DNA from: an uncultured Nitrospiraceae bacterium
Lineage (GTDB): Bacteria; Nitrospirota; Thermodesulfovibrionia; Thermodesulfovibrionales; UBA6898
DNA length: 64,000 nucleotides
Direction of reading: 5' to 3'
Assembly (NCBI GenBank): GCA_963811165.1
Contig: CAWEQH010000010.1
Location: 736,001-800,000, forward strand
The first letter of the stretch is position 1, and every line of letters begins with the position of its first letter. Positions 48,855 through 61,673 of this stretch are shown here, one piece after another. Under the pieces are notes generated by a model, which had not been told where the DNA came from, made no database searches, and saw only the letters and a program-made list of their open reading frames with translations. Both the position numbers and the translations under genes were made by a program.

Positions 48855-48913
48855 GCCTGGATCATTCTTCTAAGATGAAACCAGAGTATCTGATTTTTGA
48901 GGGGGTGAGCGTC

Positions 48914-49375
48914 ATGAGATTCGATTATATCAGCTCTTTTGTGGATTCGGCTGAAAATGTGATGGAAGGCATCATATCGTCTGGCATCAGACGAGGAGAG
49001 ATTACCCTGGAGGATTCTCTTTTCGCCCGGGGTATTTCCGCAACGATATTCCTCGTCGGTAGCGTGGATGGCCGCGTGGTCCTGGATCTGGAGCCCTCGG
49101 TAGCAAAAAAAATCGCAGGGTCGATGAATAATGTAGAGTTCGACCGCGTTGATCATCTTGTCCTGGATACAATATGCGAACTGACAAACATCATTATCGG
49201 GAAGGCCGTGACGGCCCTCAACAACAAGGGATTCCGATTCAGGCCTTCTCCACCGTGTTTTTTTATCGGAGAAAAGGTCTACTTCGGTCTTGAGGCCCTG
49301 TCCATCTCACTTTCCACAGAATGGGGAGAGTTGTACATAAAGGCGGCGATCAAGGAACGAACGGGGTTCAATTAG
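48914..49375 (+). CDS. cheX: CheX-like chemotaxis phosphatase
   Basis: LVGSVDGRVV, ICELTNIIIGKA (E-x-x-N), SPP. Confidence 0.85.
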   Translation: MRFDYISSFVDSAENVMEGIISSGIRRGEITLEDSLFARGISATIFLVGSVDGRVVLDLEPSVAKKIAGSMNNVEFDRVDHLVLDTICELTNIIIGKAVTALNNKGFRFRPSPPCFFIGEKVYFGLEALSISLSTEWGELYIKAAIKERTGFN

Positions 49376-49433
49376 TAATGGGTAGATTTGTTGAAAAAAG
49401 TCAAGGGCGATCCTAACCTGGAAGGAGGCAAGT

Positions 49434-49898
49434 ATGCTGAAAAAAAATCAGATTGTCAGATTCATGGTAGGAAAAGAATCTTTCGGAGTTGATATCGGAA
49501 GAGTACAGGAGATTGTAACGGTCCCTGAGATAACGAGGGTGCCGGATACTCCGGATTTTGTTGAAGGGATAATCAATCTCAGGGGAAAGATCGTATCTGT
49601 TGTAGATCTCAGGAAAAGGCTGAAGTTCAACTGCACCGGGACAGATAAGAAAAACAGGATCCTCGTTACCGAGATCGAGGGTAAAGTGGTGGGGCTTATT
49701 GTAGACGAAGTGTCTGAGGTGTTGAGGCTGAATCCGGATAATATTGAACCACCTCCGGAACTGGTCAATTCTGTCGGCGCCGAATATATAACGGGTGTCG
49801 GGAAGCTTGTTGACGGGATAATCCTTCTGCTCGATCTTGGTAAAGTGCTCGACCTGGAGGAGATTGCTAAGATTAAAGTCGTTCCGGAGGCCGCATAG
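49434..49898 (+). CDS. cheW: Chemotaxis coupling protein CheW
   Basis: VQEI, GIINLRGKIVSVVDL, GLIVDEV. Confidence 0.96.
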   Translation: MLKKNQIVRFMVGKESFGVDIGRVQEIVTVPEITRVPDTPDFVEGIINLRGKIVSVVDLRKRLKFNCTGTDKKNRILVTEIEGKVVGLIVDEVSEVLRLNPDNIEPPPELVNSVGAEYITGVGKLVDGIILLLDLGKVLDLEEIAKIKVVPEAA

Positions 49899-50048
49899 GA
49901 TTTTTTGCCGGAAGGAGGATTATTTATGAATATACGAATAAGAAGGGAGCTGCCGCGTTGTCGGGCTTCTTAATGATTGTGAATAAAATGGAGCAGCTGT
50001 AAAGATGGCATGTAATCACCATATTATCAAACCATAGAGGAGGTTGAA

Positions 50049-52292
50049 ATGTTTGAGTTCCTAAAAAAGGATTTAATTGCAAGTAATGAACAATTACAAA
50101 AACGCGTCATGGAACTGGAAGAAGACCTGAATAAGGTAAATCAAAGTAACACTCGATGTGAAGGTATCATTGAGGCTATTGCTGCTCCAATGATTGTTGT
50201 TGACAGAGATCTTTTGATTACCTACGTCAATGAAGCTGCATTAACGGCAATGGGTTACAGACGTGAAGAAGTAGTGGGAAAGATGACCTGTGACCGGTTC
50301 CAAAAGACGCTTATTTGTGGCACAGAAAAATGCACCCTCAAAAAATGTATGCGGACCGGCGAGATAATAATAGGCGAAACAATGGCAGAGACAAAGAATG
50401 GGAAAAAAATACCTATACAGGCAGCCTGTTCAGCCCTTTATGATAAAGATGGTAATGCTTGCGGCGGTATAGAGGTAATAAGCGACCAGACAGATCTTGT
50501 TGGTGCAAAGTGGGAGACAGATAACATCCTTAAATCCATTGCTGCGCCTATGGTTGTTGCAGACAAGGATTTGAAGATTACCTCTGTTAATGATGCTGCA
50601 TTAGTGGTAATGGGCTACAGACGTGAAGAAGTAGTGGGAAAGATGACCTGTGCCCAGTTCCAAAAGACCTTACTCTGTGGTACTGCTAATTGTACTCTTA
50701 AAAAGTGTATGAGCACTGGTGAAGTGGTCATAGGTGAAACTATCGCAGAGACCAGGGGCGGGAATAAATTTCCCATACAGGCGTCATGTTCAGCACTTTT
50801 TGATAAGGATGGCAATGTTCGTGGAGGTATGGAAGTAATCATAGATATATCTGAAGTCAAACATCTCCAGAAAGAGGCCATTGAACAGAGGGAATATCTT
50901 GAGAGACAGGTAGCAATGCTGGTCGAAAAGTTAGAGGCTCTAAGCCTCGGAGATCTCACGGTCAATTTTGTTGCTGAACACAAAGACGAAATCGGAAAAA
51001 TCATAGACAGTTTGAATAAAGTTGTTCTTAGTATCAGAGAGATGGCTAATACCGCGGATGAGATTGCGGAAGGAGACCTGAGGGGGAATGTGACACCGAA
51101 GTCCGACAAGGACATTCTCGGCAACGCCTTCAAAAAGATGGTCGCCGGCCTGAGGGACATAGTCGGCGAGATAAAGATCGGTTCTGAGCAGATAACCGCT
51201 GCCTCGACCCAGATAGCGTCAACCGCCGAGCAGGCATCCAGAAACAATGAGTCGGCAGCCTCTGCAGTAGAGGAGACCACATCAACGATGCACGAGATGT
51301 CCGCAAATATTGGGAATGTGGCAAAAAATACCCAGAGTCAGGCGTCGTCAGTCACAGAGACTTCTGCATCTATCGAGCAGATGGCCGCCTCGACACAGAG
51401 AATAGCGGCTACTGCAAAGCAGCTCGTTGAATTGTCGCAGCAGGCAAAGAAGGCCGTTGAACTTGGACTGGAGTCTGTTGAAAACTCCGTAAAAGGAACG
51501 GACGAGATCAGCAAGGCAATAACCCGTTCAGCGGACAGCATCGGGGCCCTTGGCTCAAGGGCTGAAAATATAGGCAAGATCGTTGATGTCATCGACGATA
51601 TCGCCGAACAGACAAACCTCCTTGCCCTTAATGCCGCGATAGAGGCTGCAAGGGCCGGGGAGCAGGGTCTCGGCTTTGCCGTTGTCGCCGAAGAGGTCAG
51701 AAAGCTTGCGGAGCGTTCGGCGAAGTCAACGAAAGAGATTGCAGAGCTCATAACCGGCATTCAGAAAGAGACACAGGAAGCGGTAAAGTTTATGGACAAA
51801 TCCATCCAAATAGTGGAAAAGGGCGTTGATCTGAGCAAACAGGTAGGCAATTCCCTCAAGAACATAGAAGGCAATGTGGTGGAGGTAGACCGGTACTCAA
51901 GAGAGATAGGCGCTGCAACGCAGGAACAGTCCAGCGGCAGCACGCAGATCGCAAAGGCAGCGGAAAACCTGAGAGAGGTGACCCATGAAATAACGTCCGC
52001 GACCGAGGAGCAGGCTTCAGCCGCCGAGCAGATCGTAAAAACAATGGAGAAGATGAGGGATATGATACACCAGAATGCCTCGGGCACTACAGAGCTTGCC
52101 TCATCAGCCGAACAGTTGAATTCCCAGGCCGAGAGGTTTCAGCAGGTGGTGGGCAAGTTCATGCTTAATGGGTCTGAAAGAGTATCAGTGGCGCGGCCGG
52201 ACTTGCATAAAAAAGAAAGAAGCGCTAAGCAGGATGATGGGAACGGTGATCGCAAGGCGAAATTCGGGCGTGAAACAGTGGCTGTAAGGTGA
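50049..52292 (+). CDS. Cytoplasmic MCP with two tandem Cys-rich PAS domains
   Basis: No TM segment; duplicated 120-aa PAS; IAEQTNLLALNAAIEAARAGEQGLGFAVVAEEVRKLAERS. Confidence 0.94.
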   Translation: MFEFLKKDLIASNEQLQKRVMELEEDLNKVNQSNTRCEGIIEAIAAPMIVVDRDLLITYVNEAALTAMGYRREEVVGKMTCDRFQKTLICGTEKCTLKKCMRTGEIIIGETMAETKNGKKIPIQAACSALYDKDGNACGGIEVISDQTDLVGAKWETDNILKSIAAPMVVADKDLKITSVNDAALVVMGYRREEVVGKMTCAQFQKTLLCGTANCTLKKCMSTGEVVIGETIAETRGGNKFPIQASCSALFDKDGNVRGGMEVIIDISEVKHLQKEAIEQREYLERQVAMLVEKLEALSLGDLTVNFVAEHKDEIGKIIDSLNKVVLSIREMANTADEIAEGDLRGNVTPKSDKDILGNAFKKMVAGLRDIVGEIKIGSEQITAASTQIASTAEQASRNNESAASAVEETTSTMHEMSANIGNVAKNTQSQASSVTETSASIEQMAASTQRIAATAKQLVELSQQAKKAVELGLESVENSVKGTDEISKAITRSADSIGALGSRAENIGKIVDVIDDIAEQTNLLALNAAIEAARAGEQGLGFAVVAEEVRKLAERSAKSTKEIAELITGIQKETQEAVKFMDKSIQIVEKGVDLSKQVGNSLKNIEGNVVEVDRYSREIGAATQEQSSGSTQIAKAAENLREVTHEITSATEEQASAAEQIVKTMEKMRDMIHQNASGTTELASSAEQLNSQAERFQQVVGKFMLNGSERVSVARPDLHKKERSAKQDDGNGDRKAKFGRETVAVR

Positions 52293-53146
52293 TTGAGGAA
52301 TTAAGAGGCTCCTATATGACGGACGATGAATTCAAAATCTTTAGGGGACTTATCCACAAGAAATGCGGGATATACCTGAACGATAGCAAAAAGGAATTTC
52401 TCAGGACGAGGGTGGAAAAGAAGCTGAAGGCTCTGAATATCGGGAGTTTCTTTCAATACTATAAGCATATAACCGATAAGGACCATATCGAGTTATGGAG
52501 TTTTATCGATTCCGTCACCATAAACGAGACCTATTTTTTCAGGAACCTGCCGCAGTTCGATATGTTCAGGGAGAAGGTGTTACCTGAGTTAACCGAAAGA
52601 AAACGCAGACTCCGTGATTATAGCCTCACCATCTGGAGCGCCGGCTGCGCGACAGGCGAAGAGCCATATTCAATCGCCATAGAGGTCGCCCAAGCGATAC
52701 CGGACGCTGCGCTCTGGAATGTCAGAATCGTTGCATCCGACATATCCTTACGGTGTCTGGATATCGCGAGCAAGGGGAGGTATTTGCCGGACAAACTGAG
52801 AGACGTGCCCGAAGGATACATGGCGAAATGTTTCAGACAGGCCGGTGAGCACTATGAAGTAAAAGACGGCATCAAGAGACTCGTCATGTTCGACTACCAC
52901 AACCTGATCCACGAGAACGGCCTGGCCAACATCGATATCATATTCTGCAGGAACGTTATGATATATTTTGAAGTTGAAGAACAGAAACAGGTCGTTGCGA
53001 GGTTCGCCAGAGCTTTGAATCCGGAAGGATATCTTTTTCTTGGGCATGCCGAAACGCTTCAGGGCATCACATCGAACGGGGATTTCAAGTTCCACTTCTG
53101 GAACAAGGGCACCGTTTACCAAAAGGTGGGTGACACGCATGAGTGA
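52289..53146 (+). CDS. cheR: Chemotaxis methyltransferase CheR
   Basis: TINETYFFR, IWSAGCATGEEPYS, IFCRNVMIYF, LFLGHAE. Confidence 0.96.
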   Translation: MIEELRGSYMTDDEFKIFRGLIHKKCGIYLNDSKKEFLRTRVEKKLKALNIGSFFQYYKHITDKDHIELWSFIDSVTINETYFFRNLPQFDMFREKVLPELTERKRRLRDYSLTIWSAGCATGEEPYSIAIEVAQAIPDAALWNVRIVASDISLRCLDIASKGRYLPDKLRDVPEGYMAKCFRQAGEHYEVKDGIKRLVMFDYHNLIHENGLANIDIIFCRNVMIYFEVEEQKQVVARFARALNPEGYLFLGHAETLQGITSNGDFKFHFWNKGTVYQKVGDTHE

Positions 53147-54797
53147 GATAATACTAACCGACTCGGATATGGCCGAATTGAGAGAGGCCTTTTTTCAGCA
53201 GGCAGGGGAGATACTCGATAACCTCAACGGTTATATTATGGCGATCGAGACGAAGCCTGACGAAGACAACTGGAAACCTCTCAAGAGAGCCTTTCATACT
53301 CTTAAAGGGGACTCAAAGGCGATGGGCTTTAACAGTCTCGGCACTTTTGCGCATAAGGTGGAGGACCTGATCGCAGTCTTAAAGGACAGGGAACCCGAAA
53401 AGGGATCCTTCGACCTCCTTCTCAGCTGCGCCGACGCTTTCGGAACTTTTATCGACACAATCGCCGGAGGCAACGAACCGGACATATCGGACATTGTGTC
53501 AAAGATAGATTCACATATACGCGCTCGGGGAACGTGCGCCGGAAAGGCTGAAAAGTCGGTCAGCTTAAAAAATGTGGACAGGGGAGCAGCATTATTAAAA
53601 ATAGAACCCGAACGCGTTGACAAGATAATGAACCTTGTAGGGGAACTGGTCATTGGACGTTCCATGCTGTCGCAGACAACCTCCGAGATCGACACACTTC
53701 GAAGGGAAACCATTGCAGCGCGCCTGTACAACCTTAATTCATCCTTTGAACGTACGCTTTCCGAACTGCAGAAGTCCGTCATGAAAGTGCGGATGCTGCC
53801 GGTCGAAGTTGTTTTCAGGCGCTTCCCCCGAATTGTGAGAGATCTGTCGGCTGAAAAAAGCAAGCGTGTTAGATTAATGACGGAAGGAGAAACTACGGAA
53901 CTCGACAAAAGCATTGTCGATATTATTGGCGAGCCGCTTATGCATATCGTCAGAAACGCTGTCGATCACGGCATAGAGACTCTTGAAGAAAGGGAGTCGG
54001 CCGGAAAACCGCAAGAGGGCCTCATCTGTTTAAAGGCATTCCACCAGGGCAACCAGATCGTTATCGAGGTAAAAGACGACGGTCGCGGGATAGACATAGA
54101 CCTGTTGAAGCAAAGGGCAGTTCAGAAAAATCTCATCAGTGAAGACGATGCAAGCAAAATGGACATCCAGGACGCAATAAATCTTATCTTTCACTCAGGG
54201 CTCTCTACCGTTGCGTGTATCACCGAGATTTCTGGCAGAGGAGTCGGCATGAATATAGTGAAGGACGTTGTCGAATCTCTTCGCGGGGTGATAGAGATTG
54301 CTTCAGAAAAAGGAAGCGGAACAAAATTCACAGTTCGCTTGCCGCTTACTCTTGCAATTATAAAGTCCATTCTTTTTGTTTACAAAGGCAAGAGTTTTGC
54401 CATTCCCCTGACGTCCGTAACAGAGATAAAACGGGTATTCCCTAAAGATCTGGACACGATGGGTGGCAAGCACGTGTTCAGGCACAGAAACAGTATAGTC
54501 CCCTTGATCTCCATAGATGGAGAAGTGATTTGCAGCGAGAAGTCCTTCATAATATTTATCAGTGTCGGTCACATGAGGGCAGGCATTATTGCAGAAAAAA
54601 TAATCGGAGAAGAGGAACTGGTGATCAAGGCCCTTGACGAAAGGGTTTCAACCGGTATTGCATCAGGAGCTTCCATCCTCGGTAACGGCAGTGTGGTATT
54701 GATACTCGATCCCCTTTCTTTGATCAGAAAATACCTGTCCCGGCAGGAAGATGTCACAACAAATAAAGAGGCCTTTTATGTGCCCGGCAGTAGATAG
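53139..54797 (+). CDS. cheA: Chemotaxis histidine kinase CheA (compact)
   Basis: RAFHTLKG, MNLVGELV, RNAVDHGIE, DDGRGI, SGRGVGM, LPLTLAI; likely start MSEIIL. Confidence 0.96.
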   Translation: MSEIILTDSDMAELREAFFQQAGEILDNLNGYIMAIETKPDEDNWKPLKRAFHTLKGDSKAMGFNSLGTFAHKVEDLIAVLKDREPEKGSFDLLLSCADAFGTFIDTIAGGNEPDISDIVSKIDSHIRARGTCAGKAEKSVSLKNVDRGAALLKIEPERVDKIMNLVGELVIGRSMLSQTTSEIDTLRRETIAARLYNLNSSFERTLSELQKSVMKVRMLPVEVVFRRFPRIVRDLSAEKSKRVRLMTEGETTELDKSIVDIIGEPLMHIVRNAVDHGIETLEERESAGKPQEGLICLKAFHQGNQIVIEVKDDGRGIDIDLLKQRAVQKNLISEDDASKMDIQDAINLIFHSGLSTVACITEISGRGVGMNIVKDVVESLRGVIEIASEKGSGTKFTVRLPLTLAIIKSILFVYKGKSFAIPLTSVTEIKRVFPKDLDTMGGKHVFRHRNSIVPLISIDGEVICSEKSFIIFISVGHMRAGIIAEKIIGEEELVIKALDERVSTGIASGASILGNGSVVLILDPLSLIRKYLSRQEDVTTNKEAFYVPGSR

Positions 54798-55875
54798 GAT
54801 AAGGGTACTTGTTGTTGACGATTCCGCACTGATGAGGAAAATGATACCAATGATCATCTGCGCCGATGATAGTATTCAGGTAGTCGGGACTGCGATGGAC
54901 GGAGAATTTGCCATAAAAAAAATCGGGGAATTACGGCCGGATGTTATAACGCTCGATGTGGATATGCCGAGGATGGATGGTTTGGCAGCTCTTAAATTGA
55001 TTGTCGGCGATTTCGAAATACCCGTTATCCTTGTCAGTTCACTTACAAAGGAAGGAACCGAGATAACATTGCGGGGGCTTGAGCTCGGGGCCTTTGATTT
55101 CGTTCCAAAACCTCATGACGCGATTTCGGTTCATATCCAGGATATAGCACATGAGCTCATCGAAAAAATAAAAGCGGCGGCCTGTTGCCGCAGACCGAAA
55201 TTCAGGGAGCACCGGACGGTAAAGCCTAAGCAACCGCTGTCGCCGGTTATGCCTTTACGACAGATCTCTGCCGGGACTGTGGTGGCCATAGGGATATCGA
55301 CCGGGGGACCCCAGGCGCTTGCAGAGATATTGCCGCTCCTGCCTGCAGATTTCCCTGCGGGCATTCTCATAGTGCAGCATATGCCGGAAGGGTTTACCGA
55401 TCTTTTTGCCAAACGTCTCGACACCATCTGTAATATAAGAGTCAAGGAGGCCTGTAACGGCGATCTCATCAGCCCGGGCAAGGCCCTTATTGCTCCTGGA
55501 GGAAAACACCTCAAGATGAAGAAAACGACCTTTGGTCTTGTTACTGTTCTCAGTCAGGCCCCCCCCGCATCCGGCCACAGGCCGTCGGCGACCGTCCTCT
55601 TCAACTCTGTAGCTGAAGAACTAGGTAGCGGCGCGATAGGAGTAATAATGACAGGCATGGGCGATGACGGGGTCGAAGGACTTGCGAGGATAAAGGAGAA
55701 TGGAGGTGTGACTATAGCGCAAGACGAGGAGTCATCCGTTATATATGGCATGCCGAAAGTGGCGGCTGAAAAAGGATATGCGGACATGGTTGTCGGGCTG
55801 TACGAAATAGTGCCGAGACTTGTAAGCATAATTGATCTTAGCAGTGTCAAAACCGGGATTTCGTTGATGACATAG
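54778..55875 (+). CDS. cheB: Chemotaxis methylesterase CheB
   Basis: REC domain, IGISTGGP, VQHMP, MTGMGDDG, AQDEESS..YGMP. Confidence 0.96.
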   Translation: MCPAVDRIRVLVVDDSALMRKMIPMIICADDSIQVVGTAMDGEFAIKKIGELRPDVITLDVDMPRMDGLAALKLIVGDFEIPVILVSSLTKEGTEITLRGLELGAFDFVPKPHDAISVHIQDIAHELIEKIKAAACCRRPKFREHRTVKPKQPLSPVMPLRQISAGTVVAIGISTGGPQALAEILPLLPADFPAGILIVQHMPEGFTDLFAKRLDTICNIRVKEACNGDLISPGKALIAPGGKHLKMKKTTFGLVTVLSQAPPASGHRPSATVLFNSVAEELGSGAIGVIMTGMGDDGVEGLARIKENGGVTIAQDEESSVIYGMPKVAAEKGYADMVVGLYEIVPRLVSIIDLSSVKTGISLMT

Positions 55876-55903
55876 AGGTCCCGCTCTTTTCAGGAGGACG
55901 ATT

Positions 55904-56269
55904 ATGGCAAGATTTATGATAGTGGATGATTCCCTGTTTCAGAGAAAAAACCTTTGCAAGTTTATAAAACAGCTGGGGGCGGAGGTGGTCGGCGAAGCGT
56001 CAAACGGCAGGGAAGCGATAGCCCTGTACCAAACTCTGAACCCGGACGTTGTATTCATGGACCTTGTGATGCCGGAAATGGAAGGAATTGACGCTGTAGA
56101 GAGGTTGCTTGAGATCGACAGAGATGCAAAAATAATCGTAGTGAGTTCTCTCGGCTACAGTGAGATCGTCGACAAGGCCCTGTCACTCGGCGCCAAGCAA
56201 TTCATCACAAAACCAATCAGTTTTGCAGAGACAGCTGATATGGTTAGGGCTGTGCTGGAGGAAAAATGA
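55904..56269 (+). CDS. cheY: Single-domain response regulator (CheY-like)
   Basis: IVDDS, FMDLVMPEM, FITKP. Confidence 0.9.
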   Translation: MARFMIVDDSLFQRKNLCKFIKQLGAEVVGEASNGREAIALYQTLNPDVVFMDLVMPEMEGIDAVERLLEIDRDAKIIVVSSLGYSEIVDKALSLGAKQFITKPISFAETADMVRAVLEEK

Positions 56270-56634
56270 AAAAGATACTTTTTGTCGACGATTCATCGAT
56301 TATGCGGCTTTTCGCAAGGATGTCCACCAAGGGCATCCAGGGGGTGATGATAACAGAGGCGCGGGACGGGCTGGATGCTGTCGAAATGATTAGAAAAGAA
56401 ATATTCGATCTGATAATAACGGACATCAATATGCCAAAGATGGACGGCCTGCAGCTGATACAGCATGTCAGGATGATGGGACTGAGAATTCCCATAATAA
56501 TCCTTACTACCCTCGGAGAGGAGAAGGACCTGACAAGGGGAATGGATCTCGGCGCCAACGATTACGTGACCAAGCCGATATCAACACATAAATTGACGAA
56601 GATCATCTCAAATTTTATGAATGCCCCGGCCTGA
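56266..56634 (+). CDS. Single-domain response regulator (CheY-like)
   Basis: FVDDS, ITDINMPKMDG, YVTKP. Confidence 0.9.
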   Translation: MKKILFVDDSSIMRLFARMSTKGIQGVMITEARDGLDAVEMIRKEIFDLIITDINMPKMDGLQLIQHVRMMGLRIPIIILTTLGEEKDLTRGMDLGANDYVTKPISTHKLTKIISNFMNAPA

Positions 56635-56670
56635 TCGGTTGGTCCTGAAGATGAAGGGAGGCCCTCGATT

Positions 56671-58740
56671 ATGAAAAAAGAAGTTGTCGATAACTTTCTC
56701 TCGCACAATGATCTTCGGAGATATATCACCACATTCGAAACTTCCTTTGACGGCATCGCTATTATTAACAGGGACAGGAGAATACTGTATTCAAACTGTG
56801 CCAATGCTAGGGCTTATGGATACGCCAGCAAATTTGAACTTATAGGTAAGAGATGGCAGATGCTTTGTGACGATAATGAGATGAAGAGGTTCGAAGATTA
56901 CATTATCCCTCTGGCATGGAAAAATGGACGATGGCGCGGTGAATCTGTCGGCAAGAGAAGGGATGGGACCAGGTTCCACCATGAGGTCTCTCTAACCGTG
57001 ATTGAAGGGGGAAAGATAGTAATCGTCGTCAGGGATCTTACGGAATACAAGAAGACGAGGGATGAGCTATTTTCGCTGAAAAAGGCGGTCGAAAACATGC
57101 AGATAGGGGTCACAATCACAGATCTGCACAGGAAGATTCTTTATGCCAACCCCAGCGAAGCGGAAATGCACGGCTACAGCGTTGAAGAACTGATAGGAAA
57201 AGATGTTCGGGTCTTTGCTCCACCGGACCGGTGGAAGCCCCTGAAGTTGGACGGATTGACGAGACACTTTACAAGGGAGAGCGTCAACATCAGGAAAGAC
57301 GGAAGTCTTTTTTCTGTGCAGCTTATGTCCGATTTTGTGACCGACTCCGAAGGGCAGATAATAAATATTGTTACGACATGCGAAGACATAACGAAACGCA
57401 AGATGTCCGAGGAGACGATAAAACATAAGGCTTACTACGACGACCTGACTGACCTTCCCAATCGCCTGTTATTCAGTGAATGTCTGGAGCAGGCCCTTTC
57501 GGAGGCAAAGAGAAAAAACAAACTGGTAGCCGTAATGCTCTTTGATCTCGACCGCTTCAATGCCATTAACGATTCGATTGACCACGATGCCGGAGACCTC
57601 CTCATATATTATGTGGCTCAGAGACTTCGGTGTTGCGTGCGCAACAAGGACACTGTCTCGAGGCTCGGCGGAGATGAATTTCTCATAATGTTGCCGGATC
57701 TAAACACTGTTCAGGAGGCGGTAATTGTTGCCAAAAAAATTCTGGGCGTAATATCTCAGGTCTTTATGCTGGACCCCCATGAACTGCATGTCACTGCGAG
57801 CATAGGCATTAGTATTTATCCCACCGACGGAGACAAAGTTTCGACGCTGATAAAAAATGCCGACACAGCGATGTATTACGTCAAATCGCAGGGGAGGAAC
57901 AATTACTTTTTTTATACTCCACCGATGAACTCAAAAAAACTGGAGCATCTGACAATGGAAAACGACCTGCACGATGCTCTGAAACGGAAAGAGCTGCGGC
58001 TTCACTATCAGCCGCAATACGACCTTAATACAGGCAGAATCGTTGGCGTAGAAGCCCTGATGCGGTGGCAGCATTCCATCCGAGGGCTGATCTCTCCCAA
58101 AGAGTTTATACCCCTTGCGGAAGAAACGGGGCTCATTGTATCGATCGGCAGTTGGCTGTTACATAATGCTTGCGAACAGCTCGTGACTTGGCGAAAGGAA
58201 GGTTGCTGTTTGCAACGTGTTGCGATCAATCTATCGATGCGTCAGTTCAAATTAACGAACTTGGCTGAAACCATCGGCAAGACGCTAAAGAAAATGGGTC
58301 TTGATCCTAATTCGCTGGAATTGGAACTTACAGAAAGTATAATAATGCAAGACCCTGAGATTACTGTAGCAAGCTTGCGGGAATTGAGTTCAATGGGTCT
58401 CTACCTTTCCATCGATGATTTCGGCACAGGATATTCATCCTTAAATTATCTAAAGTACCTTCCCATAAACAAGCTTAAGATTGCTCCCAATTTTGCGGCG
58501 GGGATCGGAGAAGATCCAAACGATGAGGCCATTTGCAAAGCGATTATAACGCTGGCGCACAGCCTAGACCTCAAGGTGATTGCCGAAGGAGTGGAAACTA
58601 CGGAACAACTTGAGTTTTTGCGTTTACATAAATGCGATGAAGTGCAGGGTTATCTTTTTAGCGAGCCGCTACCGGCGGAAGAGATTTACCAATTACTTGC
58701 CGGAGAGAACTGCGAGGGGACGCATGCGCGACAAACATGA
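56671..58740 (+). CDS. PAS-PAS-GGDEF-EAL diguanylate cyclase/phosphodiesterase
   Basis: YDDLTDLPNR, RLGGDEF, EALMRW, DDFGTGYSS, AEGVET, QGYLF. Confidence 0.96.
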   Translation: MKKEVVDNFLSHNDLRRYITTFETSFDGIAIINRDRRILYSNCANARAYGYASKFELIGKRWQMLCDDNEMKRFEDYIIPLAWKNGRWRGESVGKRRDGTRFHHEVSLTVIEGGKIVIVVRDLTEYKKTRDELFSLKKAVENMQIGVTITDLHRKILYANPSEAEMHGYSVEELIGKDVRVFAPPDRWKPLKLDGLTRHFTRESVNIRKDGSLFSVQLMSDFVTDSEGQIINIVTTCEDITKRKMSEETIKHKAYYDDLTDLPNRLLFSECLEQALSEAKRKNKLVAVMLFDLDRFNAINDSIDHDAGDLLIYYVAQRLRCCVRNKDTVSRLGGDEFLIMLPDLNTVQEAVIVAKKILGVISQVFMLDPHELHVTASIGISIYPTDGDKVSTLIKNADTAMYYVKSQGRNNYFFYTPPMNSKKLEHLTMENDLHDALKRKELRLHYQPQYDLNTGRIVGVEALMRWQHSIRGLISPKEFIPLAEETGLIVSIGSWLLHNACEQLVTWRKEGCCLQRVAINLSMRQFKLTNLAETIGKTLKKMGLDPNSLELELTESIIMQDPEITVASLRELSSMGLYLSIDDFGTGYSSLNYLKYLPINKLKIAPNFAAGIGEDPNDEAICKAIITLAHSLDLKVIAEGVETTEQLEFLRLHKCDEVQGYLFSEPLPAEEIYQLLAGENCEGTHARQT

Positions 58741-58976
58741 CGATCCGTTATTTGTTCCATGGCGGAGAGAGACAACGCAAATCCCGCACATTCCGGCACT
58801 TCTTGCGTTGATGGGGGAGGATTGCTATGGGTGACAAAAGAATCGAAAAGCAGGACCTGATCGAGGAACCGGAGAGATCGCAGACGCGCATAGAGAAGTT
58901 TGATAAGAACCGGATCACCGTAGCAAAATATGTCCGGGAAGGCATTGTCTCAACCCGGAAATTAGTATCTTAACCC

Positions 58977-60764
58977 ATGTTGCCAAACTTGGGAGATAAG
59001 GATAAGTCAAAAAAGGAAGGCCTAGGGGAATTGACAGAAGCTCATAATGCTGACCCGGAATACAACAAAATTATTCAGACTTCCATGGATGGCTTTTGGA
59101 TTAATGATATCCATGGACGGTTCCTGGATGTAAATGATGCATATTGTGATTTAGTAGGTTACGGTCGTGAGGAGCTGCTGAATATGCATATCGCCGATAT
59201 CGAGGTGGTTGAAAAGCCGGGGGAGACAGCGGCACGCATCCAAAAGATAATGGAGATTGGCTCGGACCGTTTTGTAACACGTCACCGGTGCAAGGACGGC
59301 AAAGTTGTTGATATCGAGATCAGTGTTAACTATATGAAGGGCGCCAGTGGAAGTTTTTTTGCGTTTATCAGGGACATCACCGATCGTCTGCGGATTGAGA
59401 ATGAACTGTTATTGAAAGAGGAATCTTTCCGGACTATCATGGAAAACTCGCCGTCCTGAATAATGCTGTTTGACAGGCAAGGTCATTGCCTGACCTCGAA
59501 CAGACCCGGACTTATGATGATGAGAGTCTCAGATCACGAAATAATAGGGAGAGAATTCAGGGATATTTGGCCCGAGGAAATTCGGCCAACAGTCGCTGCC
59601 TGTGTAAGGAAGGTCTTGAAAGGGGAACGTTGCACATTTGATGCTTACAGGATGAATGGGCCCGAGAAGGGATGGTGGAGCGTATCACTGAACCCATTTT
59701 TTGATGATAGTGGAAGTGTTTATGGGTTTGTTGCCATGAGCACCGATATCACAGAGCGCATACAGGTGGAAGAAGCCTTACGGCAATCTGAACAGAGGTT
59801 CAAAGGTGTTGTCAACAATATAGCCATAGGGATAGCTGTCATAAGCCCGGAGATGGAAATATTATCCTTGAACCGTCAGATGAAGAGATGGTTCCCGGGA
59901 ACTAATGTCTTAGATAGACCTGTATGCTTTAGGACATTTAATTCCCCGCCGAGAGAAACGATTTGTCCTTATTGCATAACGTATTTAACTCTGAAAGACG
60001 GCCAGGTGCATGAGACAATAACAGACACGCCGGCTGGCAATAAAATAATAAATTACAGAGTGCTTTCTTCCCCCATACTAAATAAAGAGGGAAGAGTTAT
60101 TGCTGCAATTGAGATGGTTGAAGATGTAACGGAGCTCAAGCATGCAGAACAAGCCATAAAAGAATCGGAAAACAAATTCAGGGACCTTTCGGAAAAATCG
60201 TTAGTCGGCATTTACCTAATACAAGATGATATCTTCAAGTATGTTAACCCTATGATGGCCGAGATTTTTGGTTATAGAGTTGATGAGTTGATAGATAAGA
60301 AAGGACCTGCTGATTTGACCTTGCCGGAAGATTGGTCCAAAGTAATCGAAAATATTAGGGCACGACAGACAGGAGAACTCAAATCTGTTCATTATGAATT
60401 TAGAGGCCAGAAAAAAAATAACGAAATTCTATTCATAGAGGCCTATGGATCGAGGACGACGTATAATGGACGGCCTGCTGTGATAGGGACCTTATTGGAC
60501 ATTACGAAGCGCAAAAAAGATATGGCGGAGCGTGAAAGGCTTCTCGGAGAACTTCAAGAAGCGGCTGTTACAATCAAGACACTTCAGGGAATATTACCCA
60601 TATGTTCTTCGTGCAAGAAGATACGGGACGACAACGGCTATTGGAGTCAGATGGAGAAATACATCACCGAACATTCATCAGCAGAGTTCAGCCATAGCAT
60701 TTGCCCCGATTGTGCAAAGAAAATATATCCTGACTATTATGATAAATTATTTGGGGGTGATTAA
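58977..60764 (+). CDS. Multi-PAS protein with Cys-rich C-terminal domain, interrupted by in-frame TGA at 59457 (candidate selenocysteine, otherwise pseudogene)
   Basis: ORFs 58977-59459 and 59463-60764 share a frame and join within one PAS domain (..MENSPS-TGA-IMLFDRQG..); C-terminus LPICSSCKKIRDDNGYW..FSHSICPDC. Confidence 0.75.
59466..59503 (+). promoter_or_regulatory. Candidate bacterial SECIS hairpin
   Basis: CTGTTTGA-CAGGCAA-[GGTCA]-TTGCCTG-ACC-TCGAACAG; apical loop begins 21 nt after the TGA. Confidence 0.5.
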
Positions 60765-60850: not shown

Positions 60851-61162
60851 ATGAAAAAAACGAAGCTTAACTGTTGGGACTTTATGAAATGTGGACGACA
60901 GCCTGGAGGGCAGCATGTCTCTGATTTAGGTATCTGCCCGGCGACGCTGGAAAAGCGCTTAGATAGTGTTCATGAGGGCCTTAATGCGGGCAGGAGCTGC
61001 TGGGTTCTTACTGGTACACTCTGCAAAGGGGAAGTGCAGGGAACTTTTGCCAAGAAATTCAAGAACTGCCAGATATGCGATTTTTACCAGACGGTGAAAA
61101 ATGAAGAATCTTATAACTTCCAGCTATCGGCCGTGCTCATGAAAAAAATAGCGGATAAGTAG
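60851..61162 (+). CDS. Two-CW-domain Cys-rich small protein
   Basis: NCWDFMKCGR, CPA, GRSCWVLTGTLC.GEVQG, CQICDFY; 7 Cys; GGAGG RBS. Confidence 0.85.
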   Translation: MKKTKLNCWDFMKCGRQPGGQHVSDLGICPATLEKRLDSVHEGLNAGRSCWVLTGTLCKGEVQGTFAKKFKNCQICDFYQTVKNEESYNFQLSAVLMKKIADK

Positions 61163-61418: not shown

Positions 61419-61620
61419 TCATTTGTCTTTTTTGAGGAGCCGGAATGTCTCCTGATATATCCTCTCCCGGGGACCGACCGCCACGATTTCAACGATATTC
61501 TTCCTGACGCGGTAAGTGATCCTGAAACGCGTCACGCGGAAGCTCCTGAGGCCCGCAAGCTCGTCTTTCAGCTCTTTCCCGGCATGCGGAGCATCCAGAA
61601 TAAGCCTTATGGACGCCGGT
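61419..61620 (-). pseudogene. 5'-truncated RelE/ParE family toxin remnant
   Basis: PHAGKELKDELAGLRSFRVTRFRITYRV..VEIVAVGPRERIY; no credible N-terminus, RBS or antitoxin. Confidence 0.7.
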
Positions 61621-61643
61621 ACATCACTCCCGGCATGCCTCAC

Positions 61644-61673
61644 TTGACACCCATTACCCATAACTGTTAGATT
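61644..61673 (+). promoter_or_regulatory. Sigma70-type promoter of the heat-shock operon
   Basis: TTGACA-18 nt-TAGATT directly before CIRCE. Confidence 0.65.

Follow-up and report, generated by a model that had tools for sequence, protein, structure and literature searches.

Does an in-frame TGA in the gene of a putative sensory protein encode selenocysteine (Sec), and what might a selenol do in a domain that perceives signals? The question is raised by a gene near the end of a 64,000-nucleotide stretch of a contig from an uncultured Nitrospiraceae bacterium (CAWEQH010000010.1, positions 736,001 to 800,000; hereafter the window). A preliminary description of the window, made from the letters alone, had reported two open reading frames (ORFs) of the same frame separated within a PAS domain by TGA and one Ile codon, and this proved exact: ORF 58977–59459 (160 residues) and ORF 59463–60764 (433 residues) are split by TGA 59457–59459 plus ATA. 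Translation of the TGA as Sec (U) yields the proposed protein of 595 residues, in which residue 161 is U (ENSPS-U-IMLFDRQGHC), ten residues ahead of Cys171 (Cys+10). The codon falls inside a PAS_4 domain (residues 156–261) and is followed by 434 open codons. The amino acid column in homologues, a hairpin downstream of the TGA and the decoding machinery of the genome support the proposal of a Sec codon with a selenocysteine insertion sequence (SECIS) in a PAS sensor, and the TGA is very likely decoded as Sec by SelB and tRNA-Sec at this coding-region SECIS. The best explanation overall, which we hold with modest confidence, is a Sec-containing four-PAS protein in which Sec would serve as a reactive switch.

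Homologues were collected in Nitrospirota and one Bacillota class. Among 390 genomes of the class, a subfamily profile matched at 34 places in 30 genomes, with one TGA at 11 of the places, and a second profile scan, in another family of the phylum, matched 19 of 401 genomes and added one further TGA (G230). The fetched loci scoring over 100 bits, with G495 collapsed with G496 (equal over the compared stretch) and three stop-free places excluded, form a set of 33 distinct close homologous domains (group I). The column holds TGA in 11 of these (12 genomes), Cys in 18 of the 22 others, and Gly (two), Ser (one) or Phe (one) in the rest; Trp occurs in 0/33, in keeping with the expectation that homologues would carry Cys or TGA here. 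The TGA copies share 31–78% protein identity and continue for 186 to 744 open codons past the site. Matches also occur in 8 of the 162 genomes of the Bacillota class around G657; none contains a stop, and the column, read in five of the eight, is Cys in four and Ser in one. A scan of a genome collection used a pattern that demanded Cys, so that its 17 loci all have Cys and TGA copies were undetectable by design; a metagenome scan returned four loci, none spanning the codon in a close relative.

Protein databases show the same site as a boundary between entries. The 12 best non-self matches to the domain (59–82%) all begin downstream of the column, and nine of the ten non-self relatives of the upstream piece, including the G230 piece, end exactly at ENSPS or ENSPT, the type of stop codon being invisible in such records. 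Databases split these genes, and kinases are therefore annotated without the whole sensor. The tenth upstream relative (P0094) has a frameshift just before the site, and its tail, judged from the peptide, looks like an out-of-frame translation of this stretch with the TGA in it.

The hairpin that follows the TGA has the geometry previously described, i.e. an 8-bp lower stem (59466–59473/59496–59503), a 3-nt bulge (ACC, 59493–59495), a 7-bp upper stem (59474–59480/59486–59492) and a GGTCA loop (59481–59485) that begins 21 nt past the TGA. ViennaRNA reproduced it exactly (−19.4 kcal/mol, z −4.0, 1 of 200 shuffles equally good; z −3.0 on a longer stretch), and its loop, 7-bp stem, spacing and energy agree fully with the bacterial SECIS model, which has a loop of 3–9 nt with G in loop positions 1–2, a stem of 4–16 bp, a spacing of 16–37 nt and a minimum free energy of −7.5 or below (PMC13188914). 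Throughout the genome, 58 of 126,198 TGA triplets precede such a hairpin (GG-opening loop of 4–5 nt at 21 nt, stem of at least 6 bp, criteria that were fixed after the hairpin at 59466–59503 had been seen), and a looser form follows 1,058. Within group I, a 5–7-bp stem with a GG-opening 5-nt loop is present in 11/11 TGA copies, 21 nt downstream (24 nt in G285, which has one additional codon), and in 0/22 non-TGA copies, which disposes of the concern that homologues without TGA might have the hairpin equally. The mean local fold is −11.4 kcal/mol in the TGA copies versus −3.8 kcal/mol in the others, and the codon of Cys+10 is TGC in 11/11 TGA copies, whereas the 22 non-TGA copies have TGC (8), TGT (12) or another codon (2). 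The notion of a hairpin conserved with covariation held in part: across the TGA copies 97.4% of the upper stem cells are paired (25–53% in slid controls), but the consensus structure of the relatives contains the upper stem only, a conserved lower stem was rejected, and double-sided changes occur in two stem pairs, one of them in the window's copy (A-U for G-C), a level reached by 6 of 500 shuffles. Synonymous recoding of this copy gave an equally stable fold in 0.5% of draws (0.1–28% across copies).

The genes selA, selB, selC and selD are all in the host genome (G000; 3.66 Mb, 95% complete), with selA (612 bits), selB (375 bits) and selD (350 bits) over the curated cut-offs and a tRNA-Sec (69.5 bits, UCA anticodon, G discriminator) that is the sole UCA tRNA. 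Two of its other genes allow the element to be compared with the genome's own SECIS: selD itself has an in-frame TGA (CAG-U-ASK; C8:483413, minus strand) with a hairpin, and fdhA (CARL-U-HAP; C8:341464, plus strand) has a TGA with a similar element, loop GGTCT at 18 nt. All 11 other group I TGA genomes have selA and ten have selB; the remaining one, G230 (89% complete), gave no selB match but has tRNA-Sec. Five distant genomes lacking selA and selB have Cys at the column. Named relatives of the host belong to Nitrospirae/Thermodesulfovibrionales, so that it is likely to be an anaerobe of this group.

A TGA at the same column also occurs in a distant PAS group (group II, PECVKLL type), in 11 of 113 matches and in 9 of the 75 matched genomes (390 searched). 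The 32 matches that were read comprise 11 TGA and 21 Cys copies, and in every Sec copy the EPE-C of the Cys relatives is replaced by A/V-P-T-U or T-P-T-U. With three duplicates collapsed, at least 6 of 7 stem positions pair in 7/9 TGA stretches versus 1/20 Cys stretches, and at least 5 of 7 in 9/9 versus 5/20. Either selB or tRNA-Sec is found in eight of the nine genomes; the tRNA-Sec search of G017 was negative, and the selB of G486 has an internal TAG. A single Sec clade is rejected (approximately unbiased test, p 0.0016) by a midpoint-rooted 42-domain tree, built on a short alignment, in which group II has only one Sec row. Sec thus probably arose twice, at least two gains being the simplest account of the sequences. 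For group I alone, a single gain followed by losses would fit the shared hairpin and the decayed stem of the Ser copy. That copy (L009 in G030:C141; Ser codon TCC) is sister to the G496 Sec copy (100/98), and a recent loss of Sec is likely there.

Explanations without Sec are, taken together, very improbable. The TGA could be a true stop, with translation restarting at ATG 59463 to give two genes, as the databases have it; an ATG stands at +2 in 11/11 group I TGA copies versus 4/22 others, and a sigma-70-like match lies at 59412–59440. Promoter-like sites are, however, hardly above chance (15 versus 9.6 ± 3.4), ATG 59463 has no preceding ribosome site, the Cys homologues are uninterrupted, the first ATG of group II, with TGA at the same column, is at +13, and in the structural model a split would strip the N-terminal helix and the first strand residues off the PAS fold; stop and restart was rejected and is given only a slight chance. 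Insertion of Cys by a selC*-type tRNA-Cys with UCA, or leaky insertion of Trp, deserves mention because G000 contains a selC*-like tRNA. This is a tRNA-Sec-like tRNA at G000:C4:471036–471126 (L007:1501–1591; 57.3 bits, GCA anticodon, U discriminator) that fits the selC* tRNA-Cys class, which is described from Thermodesulfovibrio and has UCA forms in some anaerobes (PMC5389517). Its anticodon is nevertheless GCA and the only UCA tRNA of the genome is tRNA-Sec, while no homologue has Trp; both kinds of readthrough were rejected and seem even less probable than a restart. (The "tRNA-Cys(aca)" that ARAGORN placed at C4:644207–644298 is outside the 15 matches of the tRNA-Sec model and was set aside.) Least credible is that a dying gene bears a nonsense mutation (TGA from GGA or TGG) or an assembly error. 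The site is outside the read contigs, and at this column the 70 PAS domains of G000 most often have Gly (24, against Ala 9, Val 6 and Cys 5), for which reason a GGA-to-TGA change was taken as the null. The null fails: one of the 70 domains has the in-frame TGA, and the same TGA with its hairpin, followed by an open frame, recurs in 11 further genomes, a recurrence that refutes this explanation short of a shared artefact.

If Sec is in the protein, its location suggests a function. An AlphaFold2 model of the Sec-PAS module, with U folded as C, has a mean predicted local distance difference test score of 92.3 and is a standard PAS fold, with template modelling (TM) scores of 0.74–0.81 and 13–24% identity to its top 10 solved matches (Foldseek), among which are DosP, NifL, LOV and TodS domains. 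U is residue 18 of the model and the first residue of strand Aβ (DSSP E18–22). Cys+10 is on the next strand (E27–31) and, judged from the strand limits, out of register with Sec; in the usual register of a β hairpin it would face residue +4, leaving Sec some 13–14 Å away. The preliminary description had Sec work together with this Cys as a redox or metal switch. Cys+10 is indeed kept in 31/33 close homologues, but it is Leu in all 11 group II Sec copies and present in 0/5 of the Bacillota homologues read, and the replacement throughout group II makes a Sec-Cys+10 bond unlikely as a general mechanism; Sec and Cys+10 as a general pair were rejected. That Sec repeatedly replaces a conserved Cys suggests instead a reactive side chain; the pKa of Sec is 5.2, versus 8.3 for Cys (PMC13188914). 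In the proposed mechanism, Sec161, predicted to adjoin the N-terminal helix and the DIT motif in strand Iβ, would act as a reactive selenol: its selenolate, at the Aβ hinge, would be reversibly modified by oxidants or by reactive sulfur or electrophilic species, and the modification would shift the flanking helices and, through the coiled-coil linker, the activity of the downstream output, which in this copy would be the Cys-rich tail. In AsLOV2, N414, at the start of Aβ, is reported to bond to the DIT motif and relay the signal to the A′α helix (PMC9098866), and Sec may occupy the same hinge. We regard the chances that Sec is a reversibly modified selenol switch moving the flanking helices as about even or marginally better.

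Three other roles for Sec have to be weighed against a reactive switch. Within the PAS pocket, Sec might coordinate a metal ion or a cofactor (heme, Fe-S, Cu/Zn/Hg) or hold a small ligand covalently. The conservation of Cys+10 in the close homologues would fit, as would Lys or His at +2 from Cys in related Cys subfamilies (CVKLL, CIHEID), the heme, FAD, FMN or aromatics bound by the nearest solved folds, and the apparent use of Sec as a metal ligand elsewhere in G000 (fdhA, hydrogenase). The two Sec groups have, however, no second ligand in common, since +10 is Leu in 11/11 of group II and +2 is Met in group I, and at 13–25% identity the cofactor of a solved match is not transferable; a ligand role is possible but rather unlikely. 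It is more doubtful still that the UGA is a selenium-supply switch, allowing full-length protein only when Sec-tRNA is plentiful and making Sec chemistry secondary. Every Sec copy read has its output behind the TGA, so termination would remove the output, but such a switch would leave the column arbitrary, yet the TGA falls exactly on the conserved Cys in both groups, and selenium-uptake or sel genes are absent among the Pfam-named neighbours. The suggestion that Sec is a near-neutral stand-in for Cys, arising where the codons of D-G-x-C/L already favour a hairpin, gains something from the predisposition of the stem by the peptide (5/20 group II Cys copies pair 5–6 of 7 positions) and from the numerous Cys copies within Sec-competent genomes. 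Recoding is costly, however, and TGA and hairpin persist over 31–78% protein identity and across families, so that we consider this the most improbable of the three.

Several observations weigh against the interpretation as a Sec switch. TGA 59457–59459 is known from the assembly, and the contigs of four DNA runs from one study do not extend over that codon, so that the runs speak neither for nor against it. Cys-carrying genomes of the class also have selA and selB, and the machinery therefore cannot separate TGA from Cys genomes. The covariation in group I is weak for related sequences, and the group II hairpin shows zero compensatory changes. Synonymous recoding of the window's copy yields an equally long stem in 14% of draws (2.5–14% over the 11 copies), which means that the peptide itself partly predisposes the upper stem. 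The residues other than Cys or Sec in 4/33 close homologues imply that the side chain is dispensable in some copies. The N414 match was made by strand position and LOV numbering, not by residue-level superposition. Finally, Sec-PAS neighbourhoods have zero conserved genes that hint at a signal, and the proteins have no UxxC or CxxU redox motif.

As a mobile module, Sec-PAS is joined to different outputs. Behind it lie hybrid kinases (G019, G030, G230), kinases (G285) and, by sequence, HisKA_2-type kinases (G049, G463); a GGDEF domain follows it in P0011, of which the downstream part was seen, and a CxxC...HxxCxxC tail in G323. In G323 and G049 it is the single PAS domain before the output. A Cys-rich tail is common to the Sec-PAS proteins of this window, G323, G567, G260 and G028; Pfam gives nothing over cut-off for the tail, and its Atlas clusters are named "hypothetical protein" (score 0.97). 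With the same modest confidence as for the Sec switch itself, we propose that the module took up selenium at the hinge Cys on at least two occasions and would be a selenol sensor for kinases, diguanylate cyclases and Cys-rich outputs in anaerobic Nitrospirota. The features of the gene and related loci are collected in the table.

Table. Features of the Sec-PAS gene, its surroundings in the window and the group II Sec copies
Feature	Position	Strand	Basis or remark
Read-through coding sequence, 595 residues from ATG 58977	58977..60764	+	Four PAS domains, Cys-rich tail, catalytic output domain absent (Pfam, NCBIfam)
Alternative start TTG	58989	+	Agrees with homologue N-termini
PAS domain 1, residues about 28–136	59058..59384	+	Pfam PAS 28–134, PAS_9 38–136
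Sec-PAS module: PAS domain 2, including its N-terminal helix, its DIT motif and the linker C-terminal to it	59406..59780	+	PAS_4 156–261, AlphaFold2 model, PAS fold
In-frame TGA, predicted Sec161	59457..59459	+	Column TGA or Cys in homologues; starts strand Aβ (model)
Entire SECIS-like hairpin (both stems and the bulge)	59466..59503	+	ViennaRNA fold; lower stem peculiar to this copy
Conserved SECIS core: 7-bp stem, loop GGTCA	59474..59492	+	11/11 TGA copies versus 0/22 others
Cys171 codon TGC, within 3′ arm of SECIS stem	59487..59489	+	TGC in 11/11 TGA copies
PAS domains 3 and 4, limits approximate	59784..60536	+	Four stretches of TIGR00229 and PAS_9
C-terminal tail, CxxC (543, 546) and HxxCxxC (576, 579)	60540..60761	+	Likely metal-binding; Pfam none over cut-off
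Upstream 48-codon ORF, in frame, GGAGG ribosome site	58827..58973	+	Sequence; TAA 3 nt before ATG 58977
Chemosensory cluster: cheX, cheW, PAS-PAS-HAMP MCP, cheR, cheA, cheB, two receivers, PAS-PAS-GGDEF-EAL gene	48875..58740	+	Pfam
Group II Sec copies, APT-U-V/I-K-L	L104–L111, L115, L134, L135		Hairpin GCAGA..UCUGC
Group II Sec genomes	G012, G017, G028, G034, G260, G486, G567, G648, G649		

An in-frame TAA at 58971 had been noted as a caveat. It is present, and low-depth contigs from runs X1 and X4 have an identical TAA region, but it ends the upstream 48-codon ORF, which is separate from the protein; the homologues begin where TTG 58989 lies, and the TAA therefore leaves the gene unbroken. 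A Pfam search of the small ORF gave zero matches, and it might possibly couple translation of the gene. The preliminary description also assigned the gene a chemosensory role. The gene does follow a che cluster, but che genes are absent among the ORFs of at least 110 codons in eight stretches of 3.6–12 kb around Sec-PAS homologues (seven genomes), and since these neighbourhoods have neither che genes nor anything else in common, the che cluster is local here and a role in chemotaxis was rejected. A membrane anchor is not evident in its PAS-PAS-HAMP MCP. Directly downstream of the Sec-PAS gene, 60851–61162 (plus strand) encodes a 103-residue Cys-rich ORF (CWDFMKC, CP, CW, C, CQIC) with zero Pfam matches, possibly a small metal-binding partner. 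A ParE/RelE-like ORF (Pfam) at 61419–61661 (minus strand) lies upstream of a run of genes that we take to be hrcA, grpE and dnaK from their sequences.

Two further TGA sites in G000 were seen in passing. At C4:699549 (minus strand), a TGA with a hairpin interrupts an unassigned long frame (ILHYL-U-DAGAV, 161 + 465 codons). At G000:C10:300257 (plus strand; L136:1569–3269), a [NiFe]-hydrogenase large subunit (Pfam, 711 bits) has an in-frame TGA with a hairpin of −14.8 kcal/mol; the TGA stands where the N-terminal motif would have its second Cys (RFCGV-U-T), and the C-terminal DPCLAC keeps its Cys. The hydrogenase alpha subunits in the 2026 catalogue of prokaryotic selenoproteins have UxxC alone, and the N-terminal CxxU may therefore be an unlisted Sec site; a literature search on N-terminal CxxU hydrogenases found nothing listed.

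Judged by sequence, Sec-PAS is a real selenoprotein family with a known decoding route that is apparently unpublished. The view that no Sec-containing PAS sensor had been characterised stands: the 119 selenoprotein families in Table 1 of a 2026 review include no PAS, sensor or kinase entry, most of the catalogued prokaryotic selenoproteins being redox enzymes or proteins that handle metals or sulfur (PMC13188914). Passages of the deep-Sep text and four supplements have no PAS or sensor entry, and no selenoprotein model of NCBIfam (June 2026) is among the 19 matches of the domain or the whole-protein matches listed (25 of 30). Literature searches on selenocysteine, PAS and sensor kinases, whose scope left out BSepDB Table S2, Haft and Tolstoy 2025 and subscription papers, found nothing on the topic among the papers listed. 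If the proposal is true, these would be the first class of signal-input selenoproteins, and Sec in a PAS input domain would carry selenium into signal perception. For most PAS domains no signal is known, and the repeated exchange of Cys for Sec pinpoints one residue at a relay position, which would be the residue that senses in a very large, uncharacterised family of Cys-PAS domains. The natural Sec, Cys, Ser and Gly variants and the small single-PAS kinases offer material for assays.

In its decoding, the gene resembles SelB/SECIS genes of the formate dehydrogenase alpha type, with an in-frame UGA, a coding-region hairpin with G at the loop start, Cys homologues and selA, selB, selC and selD in the genome. 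Unlike the catalogued SelB/SECIS genes, the host protein is a signalling PAS domain rather than an oxidoreductase or metal-handling protein, and UxxC and CxxU are absent. For the proposed action, the working analogue, though not a family match, is Escherichia coli ArcB, which likewise has a thiol-type residue in a PAS domain ahead of a kinase output; ArcB is reported to be a quinone-driven redox switch in which two PAS-located Cys residues form intermolecular disulfides (PMC11620690). In contrast, Sec-PAS has a single Sec or Cys at the start of Aβ, the score with the ArcB model (53 bits) is below the cut-off of 838, and this copy has no kinase domain. LOV domains share the PAS fold (TM about 0.8) and, by an equivalence of position rather than superposition, the same spot beside the DIT motif and the A′α helix. 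The identity to LOV photoreceptors is nevertheless 16–18%, the YtvA and LOV kinase models score 36 bits (cut-off 250) and 28 bits (cut-off 450), respectively, and the flavin-binding Cys motif of LOV domains was not seen in the alignment. The Cys-bearing PAS_4 subfamilies of Nitrospirota and Bacillota (SPNCVxLFD, PECVKLL, PxCIHEID), for which literature and PDB searches found no characterised member, differ from Sec-PAS in having a Cys codon and no conserved hairpin, but they share with it the same column, the N-x-x-G-L motif after strand Bβ and the modular fusions.

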